A stretch of 45,062 nucleotides of DNA from Veterinaerplatzvirus T145P1, in sequence record OZ035765.1; one strand, written 5' to 3'. The notes beneath the pieces are model-generated. The model saw only the letters and a program-made list of their open reading frames with translations, was not told the origin of the DNA and searched no databases. Shown here piece after piece: positions 554-43,743 of the stretch; the first letter of the stretch is position 1, and each line of letters opens with the position of its first letter. Both the position numbers and the translations under genes were made by a program.

Positions 554-2119
554 ATGTCTTTAGTATGGGAAGAAATGACCATTCAGGAAAAGATGGCGGT
601 TAAGGCGATATCAGAACACAGCTTCGAGGGGTTTCTTCGCTGCTGGTTTTCAATAACGCAAGGCGAGCGATATATCCCTAACTGGCATCACAAATATCTA
701 TGCCGAATTATCGACGAGATTATTGCAGGTGAGCGCAAGGACACTATAATTAACATAGCGCCTGGTAGCGGGAAGACAGAGATCGCATCAATCCACTTCC
801 CGGCCTACTCGATGGTTAAGCTGAAGAAGGTGAGGAACCTTAACATCTCATTTGCTGACTCCCTGGTTAAGCGCAACTCTAAGCGCGTACGTGACCTTAT
901 CAAGTCTCAAGAATTTCAATCACTATGGCCTTGCAAGTTTGGCACATGCAAAGACGATGAACTTCAGGTTCTTGATGAGAGTGGCAGGGTTAGATTTGAG
1001 TCAATATCAAAGGCGGCTGGGGGTCAGATTACTGGTGCTCGAGGTGGTTATATAACAGAAACATATAGCGGAGCCGTTCTATTGGATGATTTTGACAAAC
1101 CCGCAGATATGCTTTCTCCGGTTTATCGAGCTAACAACCACGTAATGCTTAAGAACACAATTCGATCACGTCGCGCTAGCTCTGTAAAGGGAAAGGCAAC
1201 ACCAATTATCTCTATACAGCAGCGCCTGCACGTCAATGACTCAACCTGGTTCATGATGGAAGGCGGTATGGGCATCGAATTCGATTTAATTAAGATACCA
1301 GCGCTAGTTACCGATGATTACATCGATTCACTTCCTGACTGGATTAAAGATCAGTTTGCTGAGGACGTACTAAGCAGTGAATATATTGAGCGAGATGGAG
1401 TAAAGTACTACAGCTACTTTCCTAAAAAGGAATCCGTAAACGACCTGGTGGCAATGTGGGATAGTGACCCGTACACTTTCCTTAGCCAATATCAACAATG
1501 CCCAGTGGCTCTTGGCGGTAACCTGATTAACGTGGATTGGTTCCAGCGTCTTAGTGATACATTCAGGCCTCCAGCTAAGTACGATTACAGATTCATCACA
1601 TGCGATACTGCGATGACTACAAAGAGTTATAGTGACTTCTCCGTGCTTCAGTTATGGGGCTATAAGGATGCTAAGATTTACCTGATAGACCAGCGCAGGG
1701 GAAAATGGGAAGCACCAGAGTTGGAGGCTGAACTGCTGGACTTCGAGAAGAAATCAAGGGCAACCAGTCAGTCAGATGGTATCCTCAGAAGGATTATTAT
1801 CGAGAAGAAAGCGTCTGGTATCGGCCTGATTCAATCAGCTGGCAGGGTTATGCGAACACCGATAGAGCCATACGTACCGGATAACGACAAGCTGACTCGC
1901 GTAATGAGCGCATTGCCACAGATTAAGGCTGGTAATGTCGTTCTTCCAGAGTCTGCGCCGTGGCTAAACGGATTGCTTACTGAGGTTGCTGCTTTTACGG
2001 CAGATGATAGCCACAAACACGACGACCAGATTGACTGTCTAACTATGGCAATCAACCTGGTACTTAACATTGCGGACGACCCCAAAGCGCGACTAATGCG
2101 CATAGCGGGAATTAAATAG
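554..2119 (+). CDS. terminase large subunit
   Basis: 521 aa; Walker A-like NIAPGSGKTE near N-terminus, C-terminal nuclease-like acidic residues; sits before portal. Confidence 0.85.
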   Translation: MSLVWEEMTIQEKMAVKAISEHSFEGFLRCWFSITQGERYIPNWHHKYLCRIIDEIIAGERKDTIINIAPGSGKTEIASIHFPAYSMVKLKKVRNLNISFADSLVKRNSKRVRDLIKSQEFQSLWPCKFGTCKDDELQVLDESGRVRFESISKAAGGQITGARGGYITETYSGAVLLDDFDKPADMLSPVYRANNHVMLKNTIRSRRASSVKGKATPIISIQQRLHVNDSTWFMMEGGMGIEFDLIKIPALVTDDYIDSLPDWIKDQFAEDVLSSEYIERDGVKYYSYFPKKESVNDLVAMWDSDPYTFLSQYQQCPVALGGNLINVDWFQRLSDTFRPPAKYDYRFITCDTAMTTKSYSDFSVLQLWGYKDAKIYLIDQRRGKWEAPELEAELLDFEKKSRATSQSDGILRRIIIEKKASGIGLIQSAGRVMRTPIEPYVPDNDKLTRVMSALPQIKAGNVVLPESAPWLNGLLTEVAAFTADDSHKHDDQIDCLTMAINLVLNIADDPKARLMRIAGIK

Positions 2120-2159
2120 CACGAATTGCTAAACGCTAGAGCCACGGATGGCGTATAGT
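2117..2159 (+). promoter_or_regulatory. conserved promoter/operator module
   Basis: TAGCACGAATTGCTA, 22-bp spacer, TATAGT; stop codon of terminase gene is the TAG of the palindrome. Confidence 0.5.
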
Positions 2160-2190
2160 TACTTCACACCAACAAGAGGAGAAAAGGCAA

Positions 2191-2565
2191 ATGAAAAACA
2201 AATCAAAGGCTTTATATCTTGGAAACACTTATGACGAGTGTTGTGAATTCACGCCGGGAAGAGAGTACGATTGTTACGATCTTGGTGATGGATTTATTGG
2301 TCTTTGCGATGATAATGATACTGAACGTTGCATTAAAAACGGAACGTTCTACAAGTTTAAACTAATCAATGAGGAACATTTTGTAACTGAAACTGAGTGC
2401 GCATCCATGCAGCCTAGCGCCGATAAAAAACCCGAGTTTAGATATTACATCAATGGCGAAGTGGTTACTAAGGTAAAGTTCGACGATACGCTATTGTGCG
2501 TCAAGGACTTTGAATCTAGTGGGGTTGATACATCATCAATCAAGTTCGAAGTAAAATTCGAGTAA
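2191..2565 (+). CDS. hypothetical Cys-rich protein (moron-like)
   Basis: 124 aa, N-terminal cysteine cluster; own promoter module upstream (2117-2159) and terminator downstream (2586-2609). Confidence 0.5.
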   Translation: MKNKSKALYLGNTYDECCEFTPGREYDCYDLGDGFIGLCDDNDTERCIKNGTFYKFKLINEEHFVTETECASMQPSADKKPEFRYYINGEVVTKVKFDDTLLCVKDFESSGVDTSSIKFEVKFE

Positions 2566-2585
2566 TCAAAAACCGTGTGATAAAC

Positions 2586-2609
2586 TAGCCCCCACATGGG
2601 GCTTTTTTT
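2586..2609 (+). terminator. rho-independent terminator
   Basis: AGCCCC-CACAT-GGGGCT followed by T7. Confidence 0.6.
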
Positions 2610-2623
2610 ATTGGAGAAATGCA

Positions 2624-3874
2624 ATGGTAAAGACAGACAGCTACGCCAATATCTTTCTCGGCGGCAGTGATGGTAGTGAGATTTACGGGAGCTTACAGAA
2701 TCAGGAGCCTACAATCCTGGCTTCTCTTTATGCGAATAATGCGCTGGTACGTAGAATTATCGACACAATCCCTGAGACAGCATTAGCGGCAGGATTCCAC
2801 ATTGATGGTATTGATGATGAGCCAGCATTTTGGTCGCGATGGGATGACCTGGAAATGACGCAGAATATTAACGACGCCTGGGCGTGGGCGAGATTATTCG
2901 GTGGCGCCGCTATTGTGGCTATCGTTAAGGACAATAGGGCACTAACAAGTGCGGTCAGAGAAGGTGCTGAGCTTGAAACAGTTCGCGTTTACGACCGCAC
3001 GCAAGTAAAAGTACAAACTCGCGAGGAGAATCCCCGTAACGCACGTTTTGGTAAGCCACTAACCTATCGCATCACCACAAATGAGAGCGATATGTTCTAT
3101 GATGTGCACTACAGCCGAATTCACATCATTGACGGAGAGCGAATTCCTAACGTAATGCGTCGGCAAAATGATGGCTGGGGCCGTAGCGTTCTATCCAGTG
3201 ACATTCTTGACTCAATTAAGGATTACACCAACTGTGAACGACTTGCTACGCAGTTACTGAAGCGCAAGCAGCAGGCGGTGTGGAAGGCGAAAGGTCTGGC
3301 TGAGTTATGTGATGATAGCGAAGGATTTGGTGCAGCTCGATTGAGACTTGCACAGGTTGACAACAATAGCGGCGTAGGCCAGGCGATTGGTATCGATGCG
3401 GAATCTGAAGAATACAGCATTCTCAACTCCGATATTGGCGGGATCGATGCGTTCCTGGATAAGAAGTTCGATAGAATCGTTGCCCTGAGCGGTATCCATG
3501 AAATCATCCTGAAAAACAAGAACGTTGGTGGTGTGTCATCAAGCCAGAATACAGCCCTTGAGACATTCCATAAGCTAGTTGACCGCAAACGTAACTCTGA
3601 GTTGCTTCCTATTCTTGGGTTCTTAATCCCGTTCATCGTAAATGTAGAAGAGTGGTCAGTTGAGTTTTATCCTTTAGCTCAGGAATCAAGCAAGGATAAG
3701 GCTGAGATTCTGGAGAAGAACGTAAACAGCATTGCATCACTAATTGCATCTGGCGCTATGAATGCTAACGAGGCGCGTGATACACTACGAGCCATCGCAC
3801 CAGAGATTAAGATTGGTGATGGTGATATTGAAGCTCAACAACAAGAAAAATCAGAGGAGGTTGTGATTGCTTAA
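2624..3874 (+). CDS. portal protein
   Basis: 416 aa, immediately after terminase, acidic C-terminus; typical gene order. Confidence 0.75.
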   Translation: MVKTDSYANIFLGGSDGSEIYGSLQNQEPTILASLYANNALVRRIIDTIPETALAAGFHIDGIDDEPAFWSRWDDLEMTQNINDAWAWARLFGGAAIVAIVKDNRALTSAVREGAELETVRVYDRTQVKVQTREENPRNARFGKPLTYRITTNESDMFYDVHYSRIHIIDGERIPNVMRRQNDGWGRSVLSSDILDSIKDYTNCERLATQLLKRKQQAVWKAKGLAELCDDSEGFGAARLRLAQVDNNSGVGQAIGIDAESEEYSILNSDIGGIDAFLDKKFDRIVALSGIHEIILKNKNVGGVSSSQNTALETFHKLVDRKRNSELLPILGFLIPFIVNVEEWSVEFYPLAQESSKDKAEILEKNVNSIASLIASGAMNANEARDTLRAIAPEIKIGDGDIEAQQQEKSEEVVIA

Positions 3875-3939
3875 ATTAATTGGTTACGGTGGGGGTTAAT
3901 GAATGATGAATTTGATGGCTTTTAGTGAGGAGAATTGGG

Positions 3940-5028
3940 ATGTCTAAAATCCGATATGACAACGCAAAGTTTAAGGCAACAATCGACGAGAATGGATTCT
4001 TAGTAGATACGCCAGTTGTCGCACGTCTCGGCGTGCAAGTCTACTACATGGAGGACGGCCGCACTGTTCGGGAGTTTCGCCCAGCCGAGGAGGTTTTCAA
4101 AGATGAATCTCTAGCGAGCTACCAGGGCAAGCCAATGACCATGGACCATGTTTTCGTTAACTCAGAGAATGCTAAAGAGGTGGTGGTAGGATCGGTTGCT
4201 GGAAAGGCGGAGCCATTAGGCAGCTCTGTAGTTGCTCCAATTGTTATTTACGATAGTGCCGCCATCAAGGAAGCCATGGCAGGTAATGCAAAGGAGTTAT
4301 CCGTTGGATACTCATCAGTTATTGATTACACCCCCGGCTGGGGCGACCCTGTTACTGGCGAGTACTTCCTCAAGTCTGAAAGTGAGCTATTCGACGTACC
4401 AGAAGGATGGCAGGAGTTCGACGCAATTCAGCGTGACATTAAAGTGAACCATCTGGCAATGGTGTATCGCGGTCGCGCAGGCATTGCCAAATTGAATATG
4501 GACGGTGAGCAGGAAAACCCGTATACTACTGACGTTGATATCAATAAAGAGGATAAACAGGAAATGACAGTTAAAATTAAACTCGACGGCGCGCAGGAAT
4601 TTGAGGTCGCCCCGGAAATCGCCTCTCACATCGAAGCACTGAACGCAAAGGCTGACACCGCAATCGCAGAGCGCGATTCTCTGAAAGCTAAAGTAGATGC
4701 AATGCCAGCTGAAATCGAAGCTGCCGTTGCTAAAGCGAAAGCTGATGCTGATGCCCTAGCCGCTCTGGTTGCTGTTGCTGCTGAGGCTGGTGTTAAGGCT
4801 GACGGTCTGGATGCTAAAGGCATTAAAGTTGCTTACGTTAAAGAAGTCTCCGGTCTTGATGTTAGTGAGAAGTCTGACGCATACATCGACGCGGCATTCG
4901 ACATTGCCAAAGAATCTGATAAAATGGCTGAAGTACGTAAAGCAACTACTGCTTCCGACAAATCTGACAGCGCCGATGAGCCTAAGAAATTAGACCCACG
5001 TGCTCGTTTAGCTAAAATTAAGAAATAA
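3940..5028 (+). CDS. head morphogenesis / scaffolding protein
   Basis: Start moved to ATG at 3940 (RBS GAGGAG at 3927-3932); C-terminal Ala/Lys-rich coiled-coil region typical of scaffolds. Confidence 0.5.
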   Translation: MSKIRYDNAKFKATIDENGFLVDTPVVARLGVQVYYMEDGRTVREFRPAEEVFKDESLASYQGKPMTMDHVFVNSENAKEVVVGSVAGKAEPLGSSVVAPIVIYDSAAIKEAMAGNAKELSVGYSSVIDYTPGWGDPVTGEYFLKSESELFDVPEGWQEFDAIQRDIKVNHLAMVYRGRAGIAKLNMDGEQENPYTTDVDINKEDKQEMTVKIKLDGAQEFEVAPEIASHIEALNAKADTAIAERDSLKAKVDAMPAEIEAAVAKAKADADALAALVAVAAEAGVKADGLDAKGIKVAYVKEVSGLDVSEKSDAYIDAAFDIAKESDKMAEVRKATTASDKSDSADEPKKLDPRARLAKIKK

Positions 5029-5040
5029 GGAGTTATAAAC

Positions 5041-5562
5041 ATGGCAATTCGTTCCGTAGCACTGGCTGGTATGGTTTCTGATACTTCTCTGTACAACATC
5101 GACGGCGCTTGCGTAGTTGGCGGCGCAGCAGCCATTCCGGTTGGCACTTTTGTTGGCGTTACATCAGCTCAGCCTGTAGATGGTCACAAAGTTGTTGGGC
5201 TTCCTGCTGTGACTGGCACACCAGTTAAACCTTACGGTGTTGTTGTTAAATCTCATTATGAGACTCCAGATGGCACCGCTCGCGTAAATGAAGCGGTTAA
5301 CGTGATGACACACGGTCGAATCTGGGTTCGTACAACTCTAGCGGCTGCGCCAGTTTTTGGTAGTAAGGTTTACGTAAACGCGAGTGGCGTTGTTGCTGCT
5401 AAGGCTGCTACCACTACCTGGGAAACTGGTTTTACATTTGCTGGTGGCTATGTGTCGGCTTACGCTGGCGGCGCTGACCCAATTAAGCAAGGTGAAAGCG
5501 TTGATGGTGCAATGGTTGAGGTTCAGTTGATTCAATCAGCAGACTCAACTGTCGCCGCTTAA
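5041..5562 (+). CDS. head structural protein (decoration-like, putative)
   Basis: 173 aa Gly/Ala/Val-rich; between scaffold and major capsid; strong terminator follows. Confidence 0.4.
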   Translation: MAIRSVALAGMVSDTSLYNIDGACVVGGAAAIPVGTFVGVTSAQPVDGHKVVGLPAVTGTPVKPYGVVVKSHYETPDGTARVNEAVNVMTHGRIWVRTTLAAAPVFGSKVYVNASGVVAAKAATTTWETGFTFAGGYVSAYAGGADPIKQGESVDGAMVEVQLIQSADSTVAA

Positions 5563-5577
5563 TAATTAAGATATATA

Positions 5578-5602
5578 AAGCCTCCTTCGGGAGGTTTTTT
5601 TA
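5578..5602 (+). terminator. rho-independent terminator
   Basis: GCCTCC-TTCG-GGAGG followed by T7. Confidence 0.7.
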
Positions 5603-5607
5603 TACCA

Positions 5608-5635
5608 TTGCGTGGGCTAAAAACTCGTGTATAAT
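5608..5635 (+). promoter_or_regulatory. sigma70-like promoter for major capsid gene
   Basis: TTGCGT, 16-bp spacer, TATAAT; between terminator and capsid RBS. Confidence 0.55.
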
Positions 5636-5673
5636 GAACCCGTAGACACCTAACTGAAAAGGAACAATAAAGA

Positions 5674-6618
5674 ATGGCCATTAAATTTGATGCAGAACAA
5701 GCAAAAATCACCGCTCACCTCGAGCAAATGGGCGTAGAGAAAGCAGATGCCGCTGGTATCTGGACTGTTAAGCAACTGACCGCCAATCTGGCACGAGCTT
5801 ACGAAAAAGAATATGCAGACAACTCCGTTGTTAATATCTTCCCTGTGACCAATGAAATCCCTGGTCATGCGAAATATTTCGAATATCCAGAATTTGACGG
5901 CGTTGGCATTGCTCAGATTATCGCCGATTACTCTGACGACTTGCCGCTGGTTGATGCGTTTATGACCGAGAAACAGGGTAAAGTGTTCCGCTTTGGTAAC
6001 GCGTTCCTGATCTCCACTGACGAAATCAAAGCAGGTGCGGCAACTGGTCAGCCACTGTCGGCTCGCAAACAGGCTCTGGCATTCGAAGCGCATGATAACC
6101 TGCTGGATAAACTGGTATGGTCAGGCTCTACACCACACGGAATTCCTAGCGTGTTCAATCATCCGAACATCAACAACGTTGTTTCTGGTGGTGCGTGGAG
6201 CTCTGCATCTGCCGCCATGACTGATATTACCGCACTTATTGATGCAATCGAGACTGCGACTAATGGCACTCACACCGCAACTGATATCTTGCTGCCTGCC
6301 TCCGCTCGCCGCCTGATGCAAGAACTGGTGCCGAATACATCTATCAGCTACGCCCAGCTGTTCGCTACCAATAACTCTGGTATCACTCTGCGTTATCTTC
6401 AGTTCCTGGATAACTACGACGGAGCAGGCGGTAAAGCAGCATTGGCGTTTGAAAAGAATCCTCTCAACCTTTCGATTGAGATCCCGGAAGCGACCAATGT
6501 ACTTCCAGGACAGCCTAAGGATTTGCACATCCGCTACCCTGTTACCTCCAAAGCAACAGGATTGATTTTATATCGCCCTCTGACGGTGGCCGTAATGAAA
6601 GGTATCACCTTCGCGTGA
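5674..6618 (+). CDS. major capsid protein
   Basis: 314 aa; own sigma70-like promoter (TTGCGT-16-TATAAT), strong RBS and flanking terminators indicate very high expression. Confidence 0.65.
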   Translation: MAIKFDAEQAKITAHLEQMGVEKADAAGIWTVKQLTANLARAYEKEYADNSVVNIFPVTNEIPGHAKYFEYPEFDGVGIAQIIADYSDDLPLVDAFMTEKQGKVFRFGNAFLISTDEIKAGAATGQPLSARKQALAFEAHDNLLDKLVWSGSTPHGIPSVFNHPNINNVVSGGAWSSASAAMTDITALIDAIETATNGTHTATDILLPASARRLMQELVPNTSISYAQLFATNNSGITLRYLQFLDNYDGAGGKAALAFEKNPLNLSIEIPEATNVLPGQPKDLHIRYPVTSKATGLILYRPLTVAVMKGITFA

Positions 6619-6624
6619 TAAATC

Positions 6625-6647
6625 GCCCTCTTCGGAGGGCTTTTTTT
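6625..6647 (+). terminator. rho-independent terminator (after major capsid gene)
   Basis: GCCCTC-TTCG-GAGGGC followed by T7. Confidence 0.7.
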
Positions 6648-6710
6648 ACGTCTGTACCAAATGGATTTGTTGGGTTATAATCACTCAATCAGATAACAAA
6701 GGAGACAAAA

Positions 6711-6956
6711 ATGATTCGTTTAGAACACACTGGCGCTTGCCTTATCGTTTACAGGGGTGAGAAATATTTGCCTGGTGACACTTTCGAGGTTGATGCAATT
6801 TGCGACGGACTCAAGCGTTTAATCGCAGAGGGTAAACTCACCATTGAGGGTGACGCCAAAGCAACCAAACAAATCGCGCAAGAAGTTGTTAGCAAGAAAA
6901 AGCGCAGAGAACCGAAAACCATCTCCGAGGCTGAGACTGGTAACGAGTACAAATAA
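6711..6956 (+). CDS. hypothetical protein
   Basis: 81 aa, RBS AAAGGAG, terminator downstream. Confidence 0.45.
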   Translation: MIRLEHTGACLIVYRGEKYLPGDTFEVDAICDGLKRLIAEGKLTIEGDAKATKQIAQEVVSKKKRREPKTISEAETGNEYK

Positions 6957-6961
6957 TAAAC

Positions 6962-6984
6962 AGGGCGCTTCGGCGTCCTTTATT
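6962..6984 (+). terminator. terminator-like hairpin
   Basis: GGGCGC-TTCG-GCGTCC followed by TTTATT. Confidence 0.45.
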
Positions 6985-6997
6985 GTATGGAGCTAAT

Positions 6998-7399
6998 ATG
7001 AATGATGCAATTTTGGCGTTTATGCGCTCGCTTGTACCTGCTCTCAAAGCGGCGGATGACGAATCAATTAATGTATGGATTGATTTGGCACGTCTATACG
7101 TATGCGAAAGCAAGTTTGGAGCAGACAAAGACAAGGCTGTCGGCCTTTATGCATTGCACCTGATGCTTGCTGATGGCGCGTTTAAAGGCGAGAACGAAGG
7201 TCTGGAAACATACAGTCGTAGAATGGCAAGTTACGCACTGAGCGGTGAATTCTCTATCACATATGATACCCAATCAGCAGCATCTGGTGATTTATCATCT
7301 TCTCAATTCGGTAGGATGTATAAGGCGCTTCTTCGCAAGAAAGGCGGTGGATTTGGATTAATTACTTCCGCTACTGGCGGTGGGTGCGGTTGCCGATGA
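6998..7399 (+). CDS. head-tail connector/adaptor protein (putative)
   Basis: Start moved to ATG 6998 (GGAG 5 nt upstream); position between capsid and tail genes. Confidence 0.35.
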   Translation: MNDAILAFMRSLVPALKAADDESINVWIDLARLYVCESKFGADKDKAVGLYALHLMLADGAFKGENEGLETYSRRMASYALSGEFSITYDTQSAASGDLSSSQFGRMYKALLRKKGGGFGLITSATGGGCGCR

Positions 7400-8588: not shown

Positions 8589-8603
8589 CAAAAGGAAAAA
8601 TAA

Positions 8604-9260: not shown

Positions 9261-9266
9261 AGCACA

Positions 9267-9289
9267 AACCCTCTTAGGAGGGTTTTTTA
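9267..9289 (+). terminator. rho-independent terminator (after major tail gene)
   Basis: AACCCTC-TTAG-GAGGGTT followed by T5. Confidence 0.65.
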
Positions 9290-9294
9290 TTGCA

Positions 9295-9337
9295 TAGCAC
9301 TTTTTGCTAAAGCGGTTATTCAACTTTGCTGTATAGT
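9295..9337 (+). promoter_or_regulatory. conserved promoter/operator module
   Basis: TAGCACTTTTTGCTA, 22 bp, TATAGT, leader TACCTCATCGAAACGA. Confidence 0.5.
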
Positions 9338-9370
9338 TACCTCATCGAAACGAAATGAGAGATTAAAGAA

Positions 9371-20550: not shown

Positions 20551-20594
20551 ATAATACAACCGTCAGTGCGGAATGTCTTTAGCTATTCGTGCTA
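20551..20594 (-). promoter_or_regulatory. conserved promoter/operator module (cor operon)
   Basis: Minus strand TAGCACGAATAGCTA, 23 bp, TATTAT, leader TACTACATCAAAACGA. Confidence 0.45.
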
Positions 20595-20652
20595 TTGCAT
20601 ACACGTAACCGATGTAACTCGATGTATACAATCTCATCCGCGGAAAATGATA

Positions 20653-22880: not shown

Positions 22881-22881
22881 A

Positions 22882-22925
22882 TAGCATGAATTGCTAAAGA
22901 CAAAACTAAAGGGTGTGGGTATGAT
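22882..22925 (+). promoter_or_regulatory. conserved promoter/operator module (erf)
   Basis: TAGCATGAATTGCTA followed by a TGGGTA/TACCCA hairpin; -10 weak. Confidence 0.4.
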
Positions 22926-26705: not shown

Positions 26706-26745
26706 AAATAGCACGAATTGCTAAAGTGGATTGTAGCATCTTTGA
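26706..26745 (-). promoter_or_regulatory. palindromic operator copy at tail fibre 5' end
   Basis: TAGCACGAATTGCTA lies between a TACAAT-like box and the fibre start; operator rather than promoter geometry. Confidence 0.35.
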
Positions 26746-27698: not shown

Positions 27699-27753
27699 AA
27701 TTACCTCCATAAACAATAAAGGCACTATACATAATGCAAAGCGCCATTGTTTA

Positions 27754-28233
27754 TCAAATCGTGCTGTTTTGCTCTTTCTTCTTTTGGTTCTCTAATTTTA
27801 TCTTGCGCCATGAACGACACTCTGGCTTAGTGGCTAATTCAGCCTCAGTGACGACTCGCAGCATATGGCGCTTTTTGCACCGAAGTGTCAGCGGTTTCCC
27901 GTTGCCGTCGAATTGCAGGTCTGGTCGGCAGAATGTAGCGCGAAAACCTTCTCCATTTCGCTTATAGTAGTTGTGAGAAAGTTGAGCCCCACGCGCAGAA
28001 ATCATACCGCGCTTAAACCATTCTTCTACAGCCTGTGGTGTTACCTTTAACTGCTTTGCGATATTCGCCTTTGTGCCGAAGAAATCAAGAACTATCTCTA
28101 GCCGCGCGCGTAGCCCGGCTCTTACTTCATCTTTTAAAACATAGTAGCCTGAAGGTCGTTTACGTTGCTTTTTGTCTTCGGTGCGGATGGTTCCGTTATT
28201 GCCGTTAATTGTTCGCTTGTCGACTGTATTCAT
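27754..28233 (-). CDS. HTH DNA-binding protein (Cro/YdaS-like), candidate early regulator
   Basis: FGTKANIAKQLKVTPQAVEEWFKRG helix-turn-helix; own canonical sigma70 promoter; palindromic operator abuts its RBS. Confidence 0.55.
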   Translation of the reverse strand: MNTVDKRTINGNNGTIRTEDKKQRKRPSGYYVLKDEVRAGLRARLEIVLDFFGTKANIAKQLKVTPQAVEEWFKRGMISARGAQLSHNYYKRNGEGFRATFCRPDLQFDGNGKPLTLRCKKRHMLRVVTEAELATKPECRSWRKIKLENQKKKEQNSTI

Positions 28234-28246
28234 TTCATTACCTCAA

Positions 28247-28289
28247 TAGCATTTTTTGTTAAAAGTCATCCTGATTTGATGGTATTATT
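28247..28289 (+). promoter_or_regulatory. conserved promoter/operator module (helicase) overlapping HTH gene 5'UTR
   Basis: TAGCATTTTTTGTTA, 22 bp, TATTAT-like; same palindrome abuts the RBS of the divergent HTH gene. Confidence 0.45.
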
Positions 28290-28315
28290 GTACTCAATTA
28301 AACGCTACAAGACAA
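28287..28315 (-). promoter_or_regulatory. sigma70-like promoter for HTH regulator gene
   Basis: Minus strand TTGTCT, 17-bp spacer, TACAAT upstream of the 27754-28233 gene. Confidence 0.5.
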
Positions 28316-30329: not shown

Positions 30330-30745
30330 AGATTACAGATAAAGAAGATTACATTGAGTTTTACCAGGGTCCGGTTAAGTCATGCCCTAAAGAGGATGAC
30401 GAACAAATCTTTTGCTCTGATTGGGTTAAGTATAACTACCCAGATATGGTATTTTTCCATTGCGTGAATGAGGGAAAGAAAACCATTGGTCAAGCAAGAA
30501 AAGACCAGGCTAAGGGGCTTCTAAAAGGCGTATCAGACTGTATGTTTCTTATTCCTGAATCACTTCGAGGTAAGTATCCTTTCGGAGCTATAGAGCTAAA
30601 GAGGGCTGGCAAAACTCAAGCAAGTCCAGTCAGCGAAGAACAGAAAGCATTCCTGAAAAGTGTAATGGAATCAGGCGGTTTCTCGGCAGTCGCCTACGGA
30701 CGTGAGGGTTTTCTTGCAGCATTCAAAGAAATGATTTCAAAATAG
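30326..30745 (+). CDS. VRR-NUC-like nuclease (putative)
   Basis: 139 aa; D...E-L-K type motif (DCMFLIP...AIELKR); ATGA overlap with helicase. Confidence 0.5.
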   Translation: MKITDKEDYIEFYQGPVKSCPKEDDEQIFCSDWVKYNYPDMVFFHCVNEGKKTIGQARKDQAKGLLKGVSDCMFLIPESLRGKYPFGAIELKRAGKTQASPVSEEQKAFLKSVMESGGFSAVAYGREGFLAAFKEMISK

Positions 30746-30785
30746 CACGAATTGCTAAAGACGATTTTAAAAGATGGGGTATAGT
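30743..30785 (+). promoter_or_regulatory. conserved promoter/operator module
   Basis: TAGCACGAATTGCTA, 22 bp, TATAGT, leader TACTCCATCGAAACGA. Confidence 0.5.
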
Positions 30786-31398: not shown

Positions 31399-31583
31399 TT
31401 GGCTTCTGCGTAAAAACAAATGGGCGATTTACACTATTTGATGATTACGAAATCAACTTTGATTCAGGCGGCGCAATAACAGTAAAAGGGGACGATGAAT
31501 TACATTGGTTCCTTAGTTATCAAGGTGATGGCTACTACGGATGCATTGATGCAAACGCAAAAGAAGTTAGTTTCTTAGTCTAA
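31395..31583 (+). CDS. hypothetical protein
   Basis: Start moved to ATG 31395 (GGAGG RBS). Confidence 0.4.
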   Translation: MIGFCVKTNGRFTLFDDYEINFDSGGAITVKGDDELHWFLSYQGDGYYGCIDANAKEVSFLV

Positions 31584-31626
31584 TAGCACTTTTTGTTAAA
31601 ACTAAAATCCACGGATGGATTATATT
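31584..31626 (+). promoter_or_regulatory. conserved promoter/operator module
   Basis: TAGCACTTTTTGTTA, 22 bp, TATATT; ATCCACGGATGGAT hairpin in spacer. Confidence 0.45.
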
Positions 31627-32562: not shown

Positions 32563-33693
32563 ATGGCAACCGCAAAAATCACCAACGAACAATTGCGCGA
32601 AGAGTTAGCAAATGGCATGACCAACAAGGCAATCGCAGAGAAGTACGGAATGAACATTCGCAACGTTGAATTGCGTCGCAGTAAATTAGCTAAACAAGGC
32701 GAAGGGCATGGTCGCGATGTAAGCAACTTAATCCCTCAGGGCTATGCAGTTAAAGGCGTCTCCAGCTTAATTGGTGCTGATGGCGAGATTAAGCAACAGT
32801 GGGTTAAATCAGATATCGACAAGGAGAAGCAAGAAGAGATGATGCTTCAGGCAATTCAGGCCCTAACTGATGAGTTGCCGCGTGAGAAAGCTAAAGCTTT
32901 AAGGGTTGGTTTATGGGAAGATACTTTAAGCCTTTACCCCGTGTTCGACCTCCACATTGGAGCAATGGCTCATCATGCTGAGTGTGGTGAGAACTATAGT
33001 ACTGAAATCGCTGAGAGAGTTCTTAATGATTACTTTGATTACGCGGTTGCAAAGGCCCCCAACTCCAAGAAAGCTGTATTGCTGATTGGGGGTGACTTCC
33101 TTCACTCTGACGGAATGGAAGCGGTAACACCAACCAGTCGTCATGTTCTTGATCAAGATAGCCGTTATCACAAACTTGTTTACGTAGCAGTGCGATCGAC
33201 ACGTCGAGCAATTAGCCGCATGCTTGATAAGCACGCCGAGGTTGAGGTTCAGATTATTCCAGGTAACCACGATCTCTCAGGTATGATTTGGCTTCGTGCT
33301 GCAATGGCAGCTTTCTATATGGATGAGCCTCGAGTTAATGTTGATGCGTCCCCCGCTGCGCTTCACGTAACGCAATTTGGGAAGACGCTGCTTGGTTACT
33401 GCCATGGGCACGAACTCAAAAAGCCTGATACCCGACTATCAGCACTGGCTCGTGACCATCGCAAAGCATTTGGTGAATCAGAGTATGTTTACACCCATTC
33501 AGGCCACTATCACCATCAAACTATTACGGAAGGAAATCTGGGTATTGATGAATCACACGGCCAGCTTGGAGCGAAAGATGCGTACAGTGCTAACGGAGGT
33601 TATCGCTCTTACCGACAGGCTTCGGTGATAATTTATAGTCCTGAGTTTGGTGAGATTGGACGATTTACTTGCCGCCCGGAAATGTTTAGTTAA
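32563..33693 (+). CDS. calcineurin-like metallophosphoesterase with N-terminal HTH
   Basis: Motifs D-L-H, GGDFLHSDG, GNHD, GHxH (SGHYHH); N-terminal MTNKAIAEKYGMNIRNV HTH-like segment. Confidence 0.6.
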   Translation: MATAKITNEQLREELANGMTNKAIAEKYGMNIRNVELRRSKLAKQGEGHGRDVSNLIPQGYAVKGVSSLIGADGEIKQQWVKSDIDKEKQEEMMLQAIQALTDELPREKAKALRVGLWEDTLSLYPVFDLHIGAMAHHAECGENYSTEIAERVLNDYFDYAVAKAPNSKKAVLLIGGDFLHSDGMEAVTPTSRHVLDQDSRYHKLVYVAVRSTRRAISRMLDKHAEVEVQIIPGNHDLSGMIWLRAAMAAFYMDEPRVNVDASPAALHVTQFGKTLLGYCHGHELKKPDTRLSALARDHRKAFGESEYVYTHSGHYHHQTITEGNLGIDESHGQLGAKDAYSANGGYRSYRQASVIIYSPEFGEIGRFTCRPEMFS

Positions 33694-33737
33694 TAGCACT
33701 TTTTGCCTAACGCATGCCGTAGAAATGAGGCATAATT
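33694..33737 (+). promoter_or_regulatory. conserved promoter/operator module
   Basis: TAGCACTTTTTGCCTA, CATAAT, leader TACCACATCGAAACGAG. Confidence 0.45.
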
Positions 33738-37178: not shown

Positions 37179-37208
37179 TACTTCTCTCCGTGTTGTTTCT
37201 GAGCGGCC

Positions 37209-37251
37209 ATTATAACAACGACCGCTTATAAAGCATTATCAATTTGTGCTA
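37209..37251 (-). promoter_or_regulatory. conserved promoter/operator module (NTPase operon)
   Basis: Minus strand TAGCACAAATTGATA, 22 bp, TATAAT. Confidence 0.5.
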
Positions 37252-37418
37252 TTAATTGTTCTTAATCCACTTTAGACACATCCACAATCCAGCCCCATAG
37301 AATGCAATCTTGAGAACTTCAGCTAAGACAAGGATAATAAAGTATCCACCACCAAGTAAATCAATCATTTTTTAATCTCCATTTCCACAATTTCATAACT
37401 TATGTAATTATTTATCAT

Positions 37419-37995: not shown

Positions 37996-38038
37996 ACTAT
38001 ACATTGAAAGCCCCGAAGGGCTTTAGCAATTAGTGCTG
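37996..38038 (-). promoter_or_regulatory. conserved promoter/operator module
   Basis: Minus strand TAGCACTAATTGCTA, 22 bp, TATAGT, leader TATCCAATCGAAACGAAACG. Confidence 0.5.
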
Positions 38039-38187
38039 TTTCGTGCTTTCTCTATCGCCTTGAGCATGATTTCGTGACTCTCAAGCAAATCCTCATTGAA
38101 CCAATCTCCGCAAGGCCAGCCCTTTCCGCTATACGCACTTATGACTTCCAGATCGAAATAATTTATCTCAGATGGCAGGAGCATCAT
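38023..38187 (-). CDS. hypothetical protein (54 aa)
   Basis: Translationally coupled; stop codon lies inside the operator palindrome. Confidence 0.3.
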   Translation of the reverse strand: MMLLPSEINYFDLEVISAYSGKGWPCGDWFNEDLLESHEIMLKAIEKARNSTNC

Positions 38188-39175: not shown

Positions 39176-39219
39176 AGTATACGCATAGTTAGCCACACTG
39201 TCTTTAGCAAAAAGTGCTA
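39176..39219 (-). promoter_or_regulatory. conserved promoter/operator module (minus-strand small-gene operon)
   Basis: Minus strand TAGCACTTTTTGCTA, 23 bp, TATACT; followed by about 200 nt leader. Confidence 0.45.
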
Positions 39220-39232
39220 TTCGTTAGATTTA

Positions 39233-39321
39233 TGTATTGTTGCAGATATTGCAATGATTCACTTGATTATTGCACATACAGCAATATTGCTTCCGATGCA
39301 ATGATGTTTTTGATTGTTGCG
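39233..39321. repeat. iteron-like array of ATTG(N)TGCA / ATTGCAAT motifs
   Basis: At least six related motifs spaced 14-18 bp apart. Confidence 0.5.
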
Positions 39322-39508
39322 AAAAGTGAAATTAAGTGGTGAGTGAGTGAATGAAAGATGGATGGACTACCATACAAGTTGATTTTTACCAATCTATGGG
39401 AGCCTCACGGATATACGCGTATCCTCCGTATACTCAGTGTCGTCACAAAAGTTAGTGACCACTAACCTACGTTTTTACGCGATATATACACACGATATAC
39501 AATATAAT

Positions 39509-39574
39509 ATCTATATATATCAACCTTTTACTTTATTATTATTATTATTATTATATATATGTATACTGTGTATA
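39509..39574. repeat. AT-rich block, copy 2 with longer (ATT)n tract
   Basis: Same core as 20695-20751 with two to three extra ATT units. Confidence 0.7.
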
Positions 39575-39614
39575 CCGGTAATTGGTGAGATTATTGATAT
39601 GTTCCGCGCAGATA

Positions 39615-40398: not shown

Positions 40399-40489
40399 TA
40401 GACTACCATACCACTTGCGGTACAGCGAGGAAGAGGTTGAGGTGGCCATTGAGTTCTATCGGAAAGCTAAATCACTACTGAATGGTAAA

Positions 40490-40533
40490 TAGCACTTTTT
40501 GCCTAACGCGGTAATGCCATGGATGGCATAATA
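40490..40533 (+). promoter_or_regulatory. conserved promoter/operator module
   Basis: TAGCACTTTTTGCCTA, CATAAT, leader GCCTCATCGAAACGAG. Confidence 0.45.
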
Positions 40534-40570: not shown

Positions 40571-40789
40571 ATGAGCAAGACAATCACGCTGCAATGCCTT
40601 AAGACAAATAACCCAGAGTTCTTAAAAGGTCACAAATATGTGGCAACCCTGGTGGATGGGAAAACATGGGCGGTTAAGGGTGGATTCCAGGATTACAAAT
40701 TCCCACTTGAGCACATACCTGGCGGAAACCTTGGTTTTGTTAGTGACTGCCGCTCAGTTAAGTTTGTTTTTGAGGTTGTAATGAAATAG
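40571..40789 (+). CDS. hypothetical protein
   Basis: 72 aa; promoter module at 40490-40533. Confidence 0.45.
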   Translation: MSKTITLQCLKTNNPEFLKGHKYVATLVDGKTWAVKGGFQDYKFPLEHIPGGNLGFVSDCRSVKFVFEVVMK

Positions 40790-40829
40790 CAATAATTGCT
40801 AAATCTTCCGCAAGGCCATTTGATATAGT
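40787..40829 (+). promoter_or_regulatory. conserved promoter/operator module
   Basis: TAGCAATAATTGCTA, 22 bp, TATAGT. Confidence 0.45.
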
Positions 40830-40870
40830 GGCCTTGTTGAAGCAAAACAACCAATCACGAGGTATAAATT

Positions 40871-41552: not shown

Positions 41553-41809
41553 AACGTTTAATGAAATGCATGACTATTATTGCGGCAATGATTGCTCTTA
41601 CTGGTTGCGAGAAGGCACCTGAGGTTCAGATTCAGTCAGGTGAATTCAATGTGGAGCGCCTATTCACAGTGGATGGATGTACCGCCTACCGATTCCGAGA
41701 TAGCTATAGAGCCATCTACTACACAAATTGCAATGGCAGTACGCAGAGTGAGTACAGGCACGGCAGGGCCATGAGACAAGAAACAGTTCAGACAGATCGC
41801 ACTAATTGA
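41549..41809 (+). CDS. hypothetical lipoprotein
   Basis: Signal peptide with lipobox LTGC; stop codon lies inside a promoter module. Confidence 0.45.
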   Translation: MKRLMKCMTIIAAMIALTGCEKAPEVQIQSGEFNVERLFTVDGCTAYRFRDSYRAIYYTNCNGSTQSEYRHGRAMRQETVQTDRTN

Positions 41810-41839
41810 TAAAAGGGGATCCATCCTGACTGGTATAAT
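41798..41839 (+). promoter_or_regulatory. conserved promoter/operator module (variant)
   Basis: CGCACTAATTGATA, 22 bp, TATAAT, with GGGGAT/ATCCCC hairpin enclosing the -10. Confidence 0.4.
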
Positions 41840-42322: not shown

Positions 42323-42323
42323 A

Positions 42324-42366
42324 TAGCACGAATTGCTAAACCCGCTCCTGCGGGTTTTGTTATAGT
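42324..42366 (+). promoter_or_regulatory. conserved promoter/operator module
   Basis: TAGCACGAATTGCTA, 22-bp spacer that is itself a terminator-like hairpin, TATAGT. Confidence 0.5.
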
Positions 42367-42702: not shown

Positions 42703-42836
42703 TTTACATCCACACGTACTACACTGGTAAGTTTAATAGCGTCAAACATGTCCGTGTTCACGATAACTACGAGAGCGCAAAAGCTCAATGGTTGGTTCTT
42801 GGTGGTGACATTAATTCATACAGAGTTGCTGAGTAG
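42699..42836 (+). CDS. hypothetical protein (45 aa)
   Basis: ATGA-coupled; stop TAG is the first triplet of the next module. Confidence 0.3.
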   Translation: MIYIHTYYTGKFNSVKHVRVHDNYESAKAQWLVLGGDINSYRVAE

Positions 42837-42876
42837 CACTAATTGCTAAAACAGTATTGGGGTAATTTGTTATAGT
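42834..42876 (+). promoter_or_regulatory. conserved promoter/operator module
   Basis: TAGCACTAATTGCTA, 22 bp, TATAGT, leader TACCCCATCGAAACGAGAGAGG. Confidence 0.5.
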
Positions 42877-42906
42877 TACCCCATCGAAACGAGAGAGGAA
42901 TAAGAA

Positions 42907-43086
42907 ATGACATTTCAACAAAGTGAGCCAAAGCTCCAGGCTAATCACTTCGATGGTTATTCGACCTTTATCATTGCCCAGGCCTGCGGGATGCGTGACG
43001 AACCACAGGTTCACACAATTCACTTAACCGAAGAGCAGGCTCGAGAGATTGCTTACGAAATTCTTGAGCAATTGAACCGAATTTAA
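42907..43086 (+). CDS. hypothetical protein (59 aa)
   Basis: Follows module 42834-42876. Confidence 0.35.
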   Translation: MTFQQSEPKLQANHFDGYSTFIIAQACGMRDEPQVHTIHLTEEQAREIAYEILEQLNRI

Positions 43087-43135
43087 CGCGACTAAAGCGC
43101 ATTCTAACTAACGATAATTTAAGTAAGGTAATTCT

Positions 43136-43297
43136 ATGATTAAGATTGTTTATGTTGGCGAGAGTGATTATGTGGCGCTCATTCAGCGTGGTGATGTGTT
43201 CTTCGCTGAGCTAAGTGAGGATGGAAAATATTACATTGTAAAGAATAAGAATGGCGAGGATATTTACCTATCAAAAGATGAGGTCATAGTTCACTGA
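43136..43297 (+). CDS. hypothetical protein (53 aa)
   Basis: Short ORF in the early-gene string. Confidence 0.3.
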   Translation: MIKIVYVGESDYVALIQRGDVFFAELSEDGKYYIVKNKNGEDIYLSKDEVIVH

Positions 43298-43428
43298 TGG
43301 ATAACTACGAATCACCAAGCCAGTGGGCCAAACGAATGCAGGACGAAGCCAAGACTGGTGAAGAGGCGATGGCTTACTACGAGATAGCGCAAATTTGGAT
43401 GAAGCGGGAGGGCAAGAGCAATGATTAA
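43297..43428 (+). CDS. hypothetical protein (43 aa)
   Basis: Overlapping stop/start. Confidence 0.25.
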   Translation: MDNYESPSQWAKRMQDEAKTGEEAMAYYEIAQIWMKREGKSND

Positions 43429-43573
43429 CACTTGCATTTATTTTTATGGCCATGAATTTATTGATGACTTAATGTACTTTCACGAAAAGTATGGCGACAC
43501 ATTCGAATGCGATGGTGACAATCTTGAGGTTCTAGCGACATTCAACAGGGGTGGCAAAAATGAGTTTCACTGA
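43421..43573 (+). CDS. hypothetical protein (50 aa)
   Basis: Overlaps neighbours; Cys/His-containing. Confidence 0.25.
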   Translation: MINTCIYFYGHEFIDDLMYFHEKYGDTFECDGDNLEVLATFNRGGKNEFH

Positions 43574-43703
43574 ATATGTTATCGCATGTGAACGACTGGT
43601 CTTTGATATGAAGACTTTTCACTGGTTCATAATTAAGGATTTAGTTAAGCCTTATAAGAAAGGTGTTATGCCAGAGCAGTTTGTTAAGTCGTTCTACAAA
43701 TAG
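43560..43703 (+). CDS. hypothetical protein (47 aa)
   Basis: Stop TAG embedded in module 43701-43743. Confidence 0.25.
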   Translation: MSFTEYVIACERLVFDMKTFHWFIIKDLVKPYKKGVMPEQFVKSFYK

Positions 43704-43743
43704 CACGAATTGATAAACCAGATCGCCACGGATGGCATATAAT
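43701..43743 (+). promoter_or_regulatory. conserved promoter/operator module
   Basis: TAGCACGAATTGATA, 22 bp, TATAAT. Confidence 0.5.

Follow-up and report, generated by a model that had tools for sequence, protein, structure and literature searches.

We found that nearly every transcription unit of a T1-like coliphage is preceded by a promoter module of about 65 bp. The window, i.e. the whole stretch of 45,062 nucleotides that was analysed, is a near-complete genome of such a phage (Drexlerviridae); it has 18 complete modules plus a single orphan site. In the window the module reads aAATAGCACnwwTTGnTAAAA, a gap of 22±1 bp, TATAgT, C-1/A+1 and an A-rich leader. On sequence grounds, its match in base order, orientation and spacing to E. 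coli promoters of the regulon of MarA, SoxS and Rob, which are drug-resistance regulators, suggests that the phage may run its genes through these host proteins. We give even chances to the fuller reading, in which these would be sigma70 promoters with a MarA-type activator, the best candidates being Rob, MarA and SoxS of the host.

A recurring module of fixed geometry had been claimed in a preliminary description of this DNA, and counting bore this out. TAGCA-N4-TTGNTA with at most one mismatch was matched 29 times against 4.4 expected (both strands counted), and TAGCA-N4-TTGNTA followed by a 22-bp gap and TATANT was matched 13 times against 0.4 expected. Seventeen of the 18 copies listed in that description are complete modules, at 2117, 9295, 22882, 28247, 30743, 31584, 33694, 40490, 40787, 41797, 42324, 42834 and 43701 on the plus strand and at 39219, 38038, 37251 and 20594 on the minus strand. 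The remaining one, 26706-26745, is the motif without a -10 at the module distance; it had been assigned to the minus strand, but the asymmetry of the motif makes it plus-oriented. One complete module was absent from the list (minus strand, 27724-27767, ahead of the primase gene). All 18 complete modules are directed toward a downstream ORF, and 15 are followed, 19-40 nt past the predicted +1, by a Shine-Dalgarno sequence and start codon (ORFs of at least 35 aa). The spacer, given before as exactly 22 bp with 23 bp in two copies, measures 22 bp in 14 of the 18 modules; three others (22882, 39219, 20594) have 23 bp, and the module at 28247 has 21 bp. As had been noted, the stop codon of the upstream ORF is often built into the motif, being inside it or no more than 4 nt away in 11 of 18 cases. 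The modules, described earlier as recurring before most early and middle genes, are not limited to these: head and tail genes are served by the copies at 2117 and 9295. The modules and their neighbouring features are as follows.

2116..2159, plus strand: module with the 20-bp marbox ATAGCACGAATTGCTAAACG, a 22-bp gap and TATAGT; predicted +1 at 2166; serves ORF 2191 and the portal and head genes; the large terminase gene ends, at its TAG stop, within the marbox.
9294..9337, plus strand: module for ORF 9371 and the tail genes, with a predicted +1 at 9344.
20551..20595, minus strand: module with a 23-bp gap and TATTAT; predicted +1 at 20544; serves the ORF starting at 20511.
22881..22925, plus strand: module with a 23-bp gap, the GCAT variant and TATGAT; predicted +1 at 22932; serves the Erf-like gene at 22955.
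26708..26727, plus strand: orphan marbox without a -10 at module distance, between the minus-strand tail-fibre and primase genes; kept in JeanPiccard and Rtp.
27724..27767, minus strand: module; predicted +1 at 27717; serves the primase gene; its marbox runs into the 3' end of the regulator gene, TGA stop included.
27754..28233, minus strand: gene for a Cro-like single-HTH regulator (T1 gp23 / Rtp52 / TLS gp57 family).
28246..28288, plus strand: module with a 21-bp gap, the GCAT variant and TATTAT; predicted +1 at 28295; serves the helicase gene; sits within the 5' leader of the divergent regulator gene.
28287..28315, minus strand: canonical sigma70-like promoter (TTGTCT-17-TACAAT) directed at the regulator gene; its -10 and that of the helicase module overlap.
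30742..30785, plus strand: module; predicted +1 at 30792.
31583..31626, plus strand: module with TATATT; predicted +1 at 31633.
33693..33736, plus strand: module with the weaker marbox TTGCCTAA and CATAAT; predicted +1 at 33743; upstream of the lysis cassette.
37209..37252, minus strand: module with TATAAT; predicted +1 at 37202; serves the gene for a 527-aa helicase.
37996..38039, minus strand: module with a terminator-like hairpin within the gap; predicted +1 at 37989.
39176..39220, minus strand: module with a 23-bp gap and TATACT; predicted +1 at 39169; serves the first leftward early unit.
40489..40532, plus strand: module with TTGCCTAA and CATAAT; predicted +1 at 40539.
40786..40829, plus strand: module whose -10 is bracketed by an 11-bp hairpin; predicted +1 at 40836.
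41796..41839, plus strand: module with the TCGCAC variant and TATAAT; predicted +1 at 41846.
42323..42366, plus strand: module with a true terminator hairpin (42338-42357) within the gap; predicted +1 at 42373; serves a Stp-like small ORF.
42833..42876, plus strand: module whose -10 is bracketed by the hairpin GGGGTAA..TTACCCC; predicted +1 at 42883.
43700..43743, plus strand: module with TATAAT; predicted +1 at 43750.

The downstream half has the features of a sigma70 core promoter. TATAGT was rightly taken for the -10: A-11 and T-7 are invariant, the mean match to TATAAT is 4.95/6, and C-1/A+1 are found 7 nt downstream. The earlier view that there is no usable sigma70 -35 also holds, as the best match at 16-18 bp spacing, chosen as the best of three spacings, averages 2.45/6; the literature value for class II promoters is 1.9. 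The conserved leader proposed earlier is real but graded, with C-3, C-1 (74/111) and A+1 (92/111) followed by tcgAAAc.AAa across 111 modules of seven genomes. The reported hairpin tendency was recovered as well, the region from -32 to +2 folding at a mean z of -2.2 over 141 modules. Compensatory changes in the hairpin are supported too, with complementarity above that of partner-swapped controls, and the covarying hairpin brackets the -10 hexamer.

With a -10 so near consensus and an extended -10 TG at -15/-14 in 48 of the 111 modules (~43%), the modules might be factor-independent extended -10 promoters that need no activator. The repeat would then have another role, for instance as a UP-like enhancer, a stoperator-type silencer or a PeSL-like recombination junction for mosaic exchange; stoperator, enhancer and UP-element roles were indeed proposed by the TLS authors (PMC11447400), and a Keio screen was negative (PMC7229145). 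Homology between the window and four relatives also tends to end near modules: 17 of 138 ends were no more than 40 bp from a module centre against 4.8±2.2 for random positions, an enrichment that is partly trivial because the control included coding DNA and was not restricted to intergenic DNA. Recombination alone, however, would not keep the 22-bp spacing across variable spacers, and the TG is missing from over half of the modules. UP elements are A/T-rich from -59 to -38, carry no invariant G/C and are T-rich where the modules have GCAC; this candidate was ruled out by the invariant G-47, C-46, C-44 and G-38. An A/T-rich element would leave G-47, C-46, G-38 and the distance to the -10 unexplained, whereas these bases and the base-exact distance point to a sequence-specific major-groove reader positioned relative to RNA polymerase. 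We consider an activator-free promoter very improbable.

The place of the missing -35 hexamer is occupied by a 20-bp asymmetric element at -50 to -31, with GCAC at -47 to -44, TG at -39/-38 and TAAA at -36 to -33. It had been described as a symmetric palindrome for an HTH dimer, and the base composition contradicts this: G-47 is invariant, its dyad partner -37 is C in only 55% of modules, and the conserved pairs -44 C/-40 T, -50 A/-34 A and -51 A/-33 A are non-complementary. A dyad-symmetric operator of the Cro/cI type was accordingly rejected (1.93 bits at G-47 against 0.50 bits at -37). Sigma54 promoters have the consensus TGGCAC-N5-TTGCW, with GG and GC exactly 10 bp apart and the start about 12 nt past the GC. 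The module motif, TAGCAC-N3-TTGC, is 2 bp too short and has AG for GG, and its -10 and start lie at least 22 bp further downstream, so this candidate was rejected too. The consensus of the 111 modules, aAATAGCACtwwTTGcTAAAAc, fits the marbox, a non-palindromic and oriented site (5'-gcannwwntgnnaaa-3'; PMC12052159), at every specified position. Exact marbox matches numbered 15 in the window, against 1.2 expected and a simulation maximum of 4, and 12-20 in six relatives. The 5-N5-5 palindrome is simply the look of a consensus marbox whose free position 3 is A.

The upstream element had also been placed at the class II activator position, correctly so. Class II marbox promoters have a forward-oriented site that overlaps the -35 region and is centred near -41. 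Read from MG1655, the G of GCAC is 35 bp from the first base of the -10 in micF and nfo and ~34 bp in fumC; in seven phage genomes (window, T1, TLS, Rtp, JeanPiccard, Vc1, Motto) this distance is 35 bp in 109 modules, 34 bp in 18 and 36 bp in 10. Rob contacts -47G and -45A in the Rob-RNAP-micF structure, and these positions coincide with the invariant G and A of the modules. With micF, nfo and fumC, which are class II promoters of MarA, SoxS and Rob, the modules share an asymmetric 15-20-bp element in which GCAC, TG and AAA are spaced alike, its forward orientation, its overlap of the -35 region 35 bp from the -10, the lack of a recognisable -35 hexamer, and an ordinary sigma70 -10 with a start site that in the phage is predicted. 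They thus agree with class II marbox promoters in sequence, orientation, -35 overlap at the micF distance and absence of a -35 next to a canonical -10. The layout is therefore that of a known promoter type, and not of an undescribed class as first supposed; the repeat, moreover, has been published for TLS. Unlike the E. coli promoters, the phage sites lie on a virulent genome at ~18 per 45 kb and serve nearly all units. They are at or near full consensus, whereas chromosomal marbox sites usually have mismatches, and the modules add the conserved A-rich leader and the covarying hairpin around the -10.

A monomeric activator with two HTH motifs, of the MarA/SoxS/Rob kind, would bind the element in forward orientation, take sigma70 region 4 off the DNA, touch region 4 and the alpha C-terminal domain, and recruit RNA polymerase. 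Displacement of region 4, the contacts with region 4 and the alpha C-terminal domain, and recruitment of the polymerase have been seen in Rob and SoxS complexes on micF. AAA at -52 to -50 could seat the alpha C-terminal domain, and the good -10 with its frequent TG would permit basal activity without activator. The ~18 promoters would drive early, replication, lysis and structural units. We searched the window for an AraC-like protein and found none (MarA tblastn best E 0.18, phmmer E > 1). As the phage has no AraC-family gene of its own, a host regulator is the likeliest reader, presumably Rob (constitutive and ligand-activated), MarA or SoxS, with RamA as a candidate in Klebsiella. Rob is expressed constitutively and at high level (PMC9178005).

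Several observations count against a host reader. Rob is largely sequestered and inactive in uninduced cells. In a Keio single-gene screen with the T1-like phage LL5 (>90% identical to TLS), the hits were confined to LPS genes, tolC, secB and ppiB; rob, marA and soxS were not among them (PMC7229145), though a need for these regulators could be masked by their redundancy and by basal activity of the promoters. Motto is reported to form plaques on 32 of 50 P. aeruginosa isolates and on none of the enteric strains tested (PMC10978715). Vc1 is labelled a Vibrio cholerae phage, and the host labels of both are uncertain because the Motto and Vc1 genomes are 45% GC and the collection holds obvious label errors (Campylobacter, Streptococcus). 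Pseudomonas and Vibrio cholerae hosts are not known to have MarA, SoxS or Rob.

The only evident regulator in the window is the single-HTH Cro-like protein (27754-28233), whose family was found in 824 phage records, essentially all Drexlerviridae, with a truncated form in DIBBI. This protein, if made early from its canonical sigma70 promoter, might bind TAGCA-N5-TGCTA near -42 for class II activation of the ~18 promoters, in the manner of lambda cI at PRM, or for their later shut-off, the marbox likeness being convergence or coincidence. All nine module-bearing genomes examined have both the protein and the motif, which also counts against a host reader, and the module in the 5' leader of its gene is an arrangement typical of autoregulation. 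The gene is also among very few with a canonical sigma70 promoter (28287-28315, with TLS P57 as its counterpart), which fits an early phage activator and speaks against a host reader. A phage-encoded reader would likewise explain why Motto grows on Pseudomonas and why the Keio screen was negative. However, dimers of single Cro-type HTH proteins bind dyad-symmetric sites, whereas several strongly conserved positions of the element break the symmetry. Residues 66-75, the presumed recognition helix, vary widely among homologues and have a one-residue insertion in the Vc1/Motto clade, yet T1, Motto, DIBBI and the phages between them share an identical DNA motif; a cognate Cro-type regulator co-conserved with its site was rejected for this reason. 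The DIBBI homologue is without the otherwise invariant N-terminal arm, yet DIBBI keeps the motif. Finally, it is very unlikely that chance would produce a match to the 11-position marbox and also its orientation and base-exact class II placement. We regard the Cro-like protein as an unlikely sole reader, though one to be kept in view.

It is also conceivable, if rather improbable, that both proteins read the element, with host MarA, SoxS and Rob activating and the phage regulator competing or modulating, giving temporal control. The extra constraints at A of marbox position 3 and T of position 11 would then serve the phage protein, and the sites are indeed tighter than the marbox definition demands (1.55 bits at A-48, 1.39 bits at T-40). 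The overlap of the helicase and regulator promoters at the marbox and the orphan marbox without a -10 at 26708-26727 would fit such an arrangement. Nevertheless, these constraints may reflect optimal MarA-type binding, as micF also has A at position 3, and the objection from the variable recognition helix applies equally.

Returning to activation by host regulators, the modules may be compared with other phage systems. T4 middle promoters depend on sigma appropriation by MotA, bound to a box near -30, and AsiA, both of them phage-encoded. They, too, form a phage-wide set with a good -10 and, in place of a -35, an activator box; region 4 of sigma70 is removed from the DNA, as we propose here. 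The MotA box differs in sequence, and no MotA/AsiA homologue was seen in the window phage. At lambda PRM, cI bound at OR2 is centred at -42; its operators are dyad-symmetric and read by dimers, and PRM has a -35. An activator site near -42 contacting sigma70 region 4 (here proposed) and a Cro/cI-type regulator gene are common to both, but the window element is asymmetric and without a usable -35. PeSL promoter-stem-loop cassettes of T4-type phages, reportedly described by Arbiol et al. in 2010, contain ordinary early sigma70 promoters. There, as here, repeated promoter and hairpin cassettes flank small early ORFs, and mosaic junctions may tend to fall at the modules as they do at PeSLs; in contrast, the window hairpin often encloses the -10 itself, and a role in recombination is suggested at most. 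Somewhat tentatively, at less than even chances, we extend the argument to the T1 family: these phages may express most genes without any promoter-recognition system of their own and run nearly the whole transcription programme via host MarA/SoxS/Rob (RamA), with ~18 full-consensus class II marboxes per genome. If so, infection would be wired to the antibiotic, bile or oxidative-stress state of the host, and replicating phage DNA would be a sink for regulators of efflux and porins.

The same module with the same spacing was found in T1, TLS, Rtp, JeanPiccard, Vc1, Motto (16 modules) and DIBBI, a phage of an unrelated family. DIBBI was scanned separately and gave ~10 modules at 35 bp; a scan of the lambdoid control phiEt88 gave no modules. 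In DIBBI and Pantoea phages, ~10 such modules go together with a gene for an AraC-family protein the size of MarA. This speaks for a MarA-type reader, although the base-contacting residues W42, Q45 and R46 of MarA are not conserved in DIBBI gp47. The repeat itself is already known: a 2024 report on TLS described 21-nt direct repeats DR1-DR18, aaATAGCACnnnTTGnTAAAA, mentioned T1, Rtp and Rogue1, and counted only three sigma70 promoters in TLS (PMC11447400). That paper tied the repeat neither to a -10 at a fixed 22 bp nor to the marbox, and it did not settle on one of the functions that it proposed. Our module consensus is identical to the TLS repeat aaATAGCACnnnTTGnTAAAA, and both are oriented with transcription. 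The TLS repeat lies ~76 nt before start codons, and the window marbox, counted from -50, lies 70-90 nt before them.

The window represents a near-complete, 45-kb genome of a T1-like siphophage (Drexlerviridae). It was 98-99.9% identical to the Veterinaerplatzvirus T145P1 records and for the most part shared ~86-93% identity with a group of coliphages that includes ACG-M12, SU57 and JeanPiccard, with the gene order as in Rtp and JeanPiccard:

30-19,272: terminase, head and tail genes
~20.8-24 kb: recombination genes
24.1-28.2 kb, minus strand: tail fibre, primase and "transcriptional regulator" genes
28.3-35 kb: helicase and small genes
35.2-39.2 kb: leftward early block
39.8-45 kb: rightward early block

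We searched both strands of the window for TAGCA-N4-TTGNTA with at most one mismatch and found 29 matches (4.4 expected). When the same motif had to be followed by a 22-bp gap and TATANT, 13 matches were found against 0.4 expected. With 5 nt instead of the correct 4 nt separating TAGCA from TTGNTA, matches did not exceed chance. A relaxed scan combined with a gene-context table yielded 18 complete modules in the window. The preliminary description, made from the sequence alone, had claimed at least 18 copies; this number stood, the motif was enriched genome-wide, and 17 of its 18 positions were confirmed. The remaining one (26706-26745) contains only the upstream element, in plus orientation and with no -10 at the module distance, and one module had been missed:

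27724-27767, minus strand: complete module before the primase gene, absent from the preliminary list
26708-26727, plus orientation: orphan full-consensus element resembling a marbox (the MarA/SoxS/Rob site of E. coli), no -10 at the module distance

The orphan element lies between two minus-strand genes, adjoins the primase terminator (26756-26773) and is kept in JeanPiccard and Rtp.

Spacing between the motif and the -10 was somewhat looser than the 22 bp (23 in two copies) originally described: 14 modules have 22 bp, three have 23 bp and one has 21 bp. By orientation, every module (18/18) has the downstream gene as its target, and 15 of the 18 are followed, 19-40 nt past the predicted start, by a Shine-Dalgarno sequence and start codon. 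The stop codon of the upstream ORF is inside the element or at most 4 nt away in 11/18, in agreement with the earlier remark that it is often built into the motif. Early genes are served by modules, as proposed, but so are the head and tail operons (modules 2117 and 9295) and the lysis cassette (33694).

A consensus was derived from 111 modules, numbered with the -10 hexamer at -12 to -7; the relatives read were T1, TLS, Rtp, JeanPiccard, Vc1 and Motto. Positions -52 to -31 read aAATAGCACtwwTTGcTAAAAc and are followed by a variable stretch. T-17 is conserved, G-14 is present in 82/111 and TG at -15/-14 in 48/111. The -10 consensus is TATAaT, with A-11 and T-7 invariant. The conserved leader noted previously was also recovered: C-3, C-1 and A+1 (92/111), then tcgAAAc.AAa. 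At 16-18 bp spacing, the best match to TTGACA averaged only 2.45 of 6 positions, so the modules have no sigma70 -35, as had been proposed. The suggested palindromic HTH-dimer site did not survive this comparison. Opposite the invariant G-47, dyad position -37 holds C in just 55% of modules, and at three further pairs of positions the conserved bases do not complement each other (-44 C/-40 T, -50 A/-34 A and -51 A/-33 A), i.e. the element is not dyad-symmetric.

The repeat itself is not new, because it had already been reported in the 2024 reannotation of TLS as a 21-nt direct repeat, aaATAGCACnnnTTGnTAAAA, present at 21 places, oriented with transcription and ~76 nt 5' of start codons (PMC11447400). 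Its authors noted similar repeats in T1, Rtp and Rogue1, suggested a role as stoperator, enhancer or UP element, and found only three sigma70 promoters in TLS; they drew no connection between the repeat and a -10 at fixed distance (PMC11447400).

The phage element was compared with the E. coli marbox. Martin et al. reportedly gave this site in 1999 as AYnGCACnnWnnRYYAAAYn. The Grainger laboratory describes a non-palindromic, oriented 5'-gcannwwntgnnaaa-3', which at class II sites lies in forward orientation and overlaps the -35 (PMC12052159). Phage sites such as GCACGAATTGCTAAA and GCACTTTTTGCTAAA fit the latter at every specified position, and TTTTGCTAAA is common to phage sites and the marbox of the mar promoter itself. 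Exact matches numbered 15 in the window, against 1.2 expected (simulation maximum 4), and 12-20 in six relatives. The pseudo-dyad GCA-N5-TG(Y) is already within the marbox consensus, to which the phage sites add only an A at free position 3. The element is a marbox look-alike and not a dimer palindrome.

The distance to the -10 also agreed. At micF, the textbook class II promoter, the site is centred at -41.5 (PMC9638938). We measured 35 bp from the G of GCAC to the first -10 base at micF, 35 at nfo and ~34 at fumC (MG1655 sequence). In the phages, 109 sites had a distance of 35 bp, 18 had 34 and 10 had 36; 35 bp is the same spacing as the 22-bp gap. The structure of Rob with RNA polymerase on micF shows Rob recognising GCAC and CAAA, touching -47G and -45A, and keeping sigma70 region 4 away from the -35 (PMC9178005). 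Forward sites in Salmonella cluster near -41, with class II promoters lacking a recognisable -35 (PMC10268841). With the patterns used here, a clear forward marbox was not found upstream of sodA or inaA. We consider it highly probable that the module has the architecture of a class II marbox promoter. The earlier interpretation thus holds for activator-type promoters without a -35, but not for a dimer palindrome or an undescribed promoter class, as the repeat is published and the whole module has the class II MarA/SoxS/Rob layout. It is this equation of the whole module with a class II promoter that is new here: our literature search found no earlier publication connecting T1-like repeats with the marbox, and none mapping T1-like transcription starts.

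Other promoter classes were tried and rejected. As a sigma54 promoter (TGGCAC-N5-TTGC) the element is 2 bp short in spacing, has AG for GG and is followed by a conserved -10 far downstream. MerR-type promoters have long spacers of 19-20 bp; for a promoter of this type (TTGCTA, 22 bp, TATAGT) 22 bp is too long, and the spacer contains no conserved operator. An UP element is excluded by the invariant G/C positions. A phage RNA polymerase or sigma factor was set aside, as none is reported for TLS (PMC11447400) and none was matched among the 18 distinct window ORFs scanned. Canonical sigma70 sites were not enriched in 26-45 kb (44 against 39.6 expected).

We next considered which protein reads the element. 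No AraC/MarA-like protein was detected in the window by tblastn or phmmer. The only evident phage regulator is the ORF at 27754-28233 (minus strand), of the T1 gp23 family, which is present in 824 phage records. Its confident AlphaFold model (pLDDT 89.5) contains a single HTH of the Cro type (best matches: Xfaso1 and N15 Cro), together with an N-terminal arm, which is conserved, and a C-terminal part. An alternative that we keep alive is that this Cro-like protein, as an early factor, reads the element: its gene is among the few with a canonical promoter (P57 in TLS; TTGTCT-17-TACAAT at 28287-28315 in the window), and a module sits in its leader. However, the model has one HTH and not the two-HTH fold, and what is presumed to be its recognition helix differs widely from homologue to homologue, in contrast to a DNA motif that stays identical from T1 to Motto. 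In addition, phage DIBBI (a Dibbivirus, of another family and with T1-like replication genes) keeps ~10 modules at the same distance (e.g. 36789, 43933, 45705), although the invariant N-terminal arm is missing from its homologue of the regulator.

The -10 of the plus-strand helicase module overlaps that of the leftward sigma70-like promoter into the regulator gene (28283-28315), and the two are possibly mutually exclusive. At 39236-39332, immediately 5' of leftward module 39219, there are three repeats of ~20 nt (ATTGTTGCAGATATTGCAAT and variants) with TTGCA..TGCAA inverted symmetry; judged by sequence, they look more like a dyad operator of the Cro-like regulator than the marbox-like element does. 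Besides the regulator, the only protein of unknown function common to all module-bearing phages, DIBBI included, is an 82-aa protein (31977-32225; phrog_2817, a PHROG of unknown function). It was tried as an alternative reader and set aside, having no Pfam match and an AF2 model with pLDDT 45.

A protein of the AraC family, similar in size to MarA (136 aa; HTH_18, E 3e-14), is encoded at 36382-36792 of DIBBI (L009); it shares 28% identity with MarA but not the MarA base-contact residues. Its gene has 95% identical counterparts in two Pantoea phages, PSKM and AAM37, and a GC content of 52% for the DIBBI genome fits Pantoea, so the Xanthomonas host label of DIBBI is doubtful; this weakens the idea that its host lacks MarA and the phage therefore brings its own. 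No modules were found in the lambdoid control phiEt88.

The asymmetry of the element, the lack of an AraC/MarA-like match in the window, the single HTH and variable recognition helix of the regulator, and the DIBBI data point towards a monomeric reader of the MarA type. For Drexlerviridae the simplest candidate would be the host's Rob (made constitutively in large amounts and activated by ligand; PMC9178005), or else MarA or SoxS. From sequence, we give reading by these host activators an even chance at best. When LL5 (>90% identical to TLS) was used in a Keio screen, there were no hits other than LPS core genes, tolC, secB and ppiB (PMC7229145). This counts against a host reader, though redundancy of the three activators together with basal activity could mask the need; basal activity is expected because of the good -10 and the frequent TG. 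To our knowledge, Pseudomonas and Vibrio hosts lack MarA, SoxS and Rob. Motto carries 16 modules and is reported to plaque on 32/50 P. aeruginosa isolates but on none of the enteric strains tested (PMC10978715), and the Vc1 record is labelled as a Vibrio phage. This objection is real but uncertain, since both genomes have 45% GC and T1-like records contain host-label errors. Several labels are implausible (Campylobacter jejuni, Streptococcus agalactiae); host fields in this family, including those of Vc1 (Vibrio) and Motto (Pseudomonas), are to be read with care.

We know of no full account of transcription in T1, a classical phage; once the TLS repeat is taken for the upstream part of a promoter of the class II marbox kind, the puzzle becomes experimentally addressable. 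If host activators read the modules, T1-like gene expression would be tied to multidrug-resistance regulators. Siphophages of Klebsiella and E. coli that are frequent components of therapy cocktails belong to this group, and phage yield could then shift with marR, soxR and ramR mutants, bile, salicylate or redox drugs, while high-copy phage marboxes could draw these regulators off host promoters. Should a phage protein be the reader instead, this would be a clear viral convergence on a host operator code.

The stretch from element to start folded better than shuffled sequence (mean z -2.2 over 141 modules; individual values down to -5.2, dinucleotide shuffles). The hairpin encloses the -10 hexamer in 85/141 modules, and about 40-60% of modules in eight genomes have a covarying inverted repeat bracketing the -10, in which spacer pairs with discriminator (e.g. 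GGGGTA..TATAGT..TACCCC, AAGGCCA..TGGCCTT). Window examples are 42858-42883, 40810-40838, 37201-37226 (minus) and 30773-30794. The longest stem averaged 5.01 within modules against 4.01±0.09 with partners swapped, and stems of at least 6 bp made up 39% against 10%, upholding the compensatory changes described earlier. The 3' arm (discriminator) is upstream of the predicted start; therefore the hairpin would be absent from the module's own transcript. True terminators occur in some gaps (e.g. 42338-42357).

Homology between the window and four relatives (L001-L004) ended within 40 bp of modules in 17/138 cases, against 4.8 expected at random, a lenient control (e.g. window 20578, 22909, 38022, 39200). 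This hints at a secondary role of modules as mosaic junctions.

A small ORF (MKQYTSSNH..) from ~42396, 3' of module 42324, is the counterpart of Rtp gene 6, annotated as a Stp-like activator of the host PrrC anticodon nuclease. Finally, two large AT-rich divergent intergenic regions (20690-20760 and 39505-39575) carry nearly the same block of ~75 nt (AATATCTATATATATCAACCTTTTACT, followed by (TTA)n, TATATATAT and TACTGTGTATA; 80% identity over 150 nt), possibly serving as an origin, as early promoters or in packaging.
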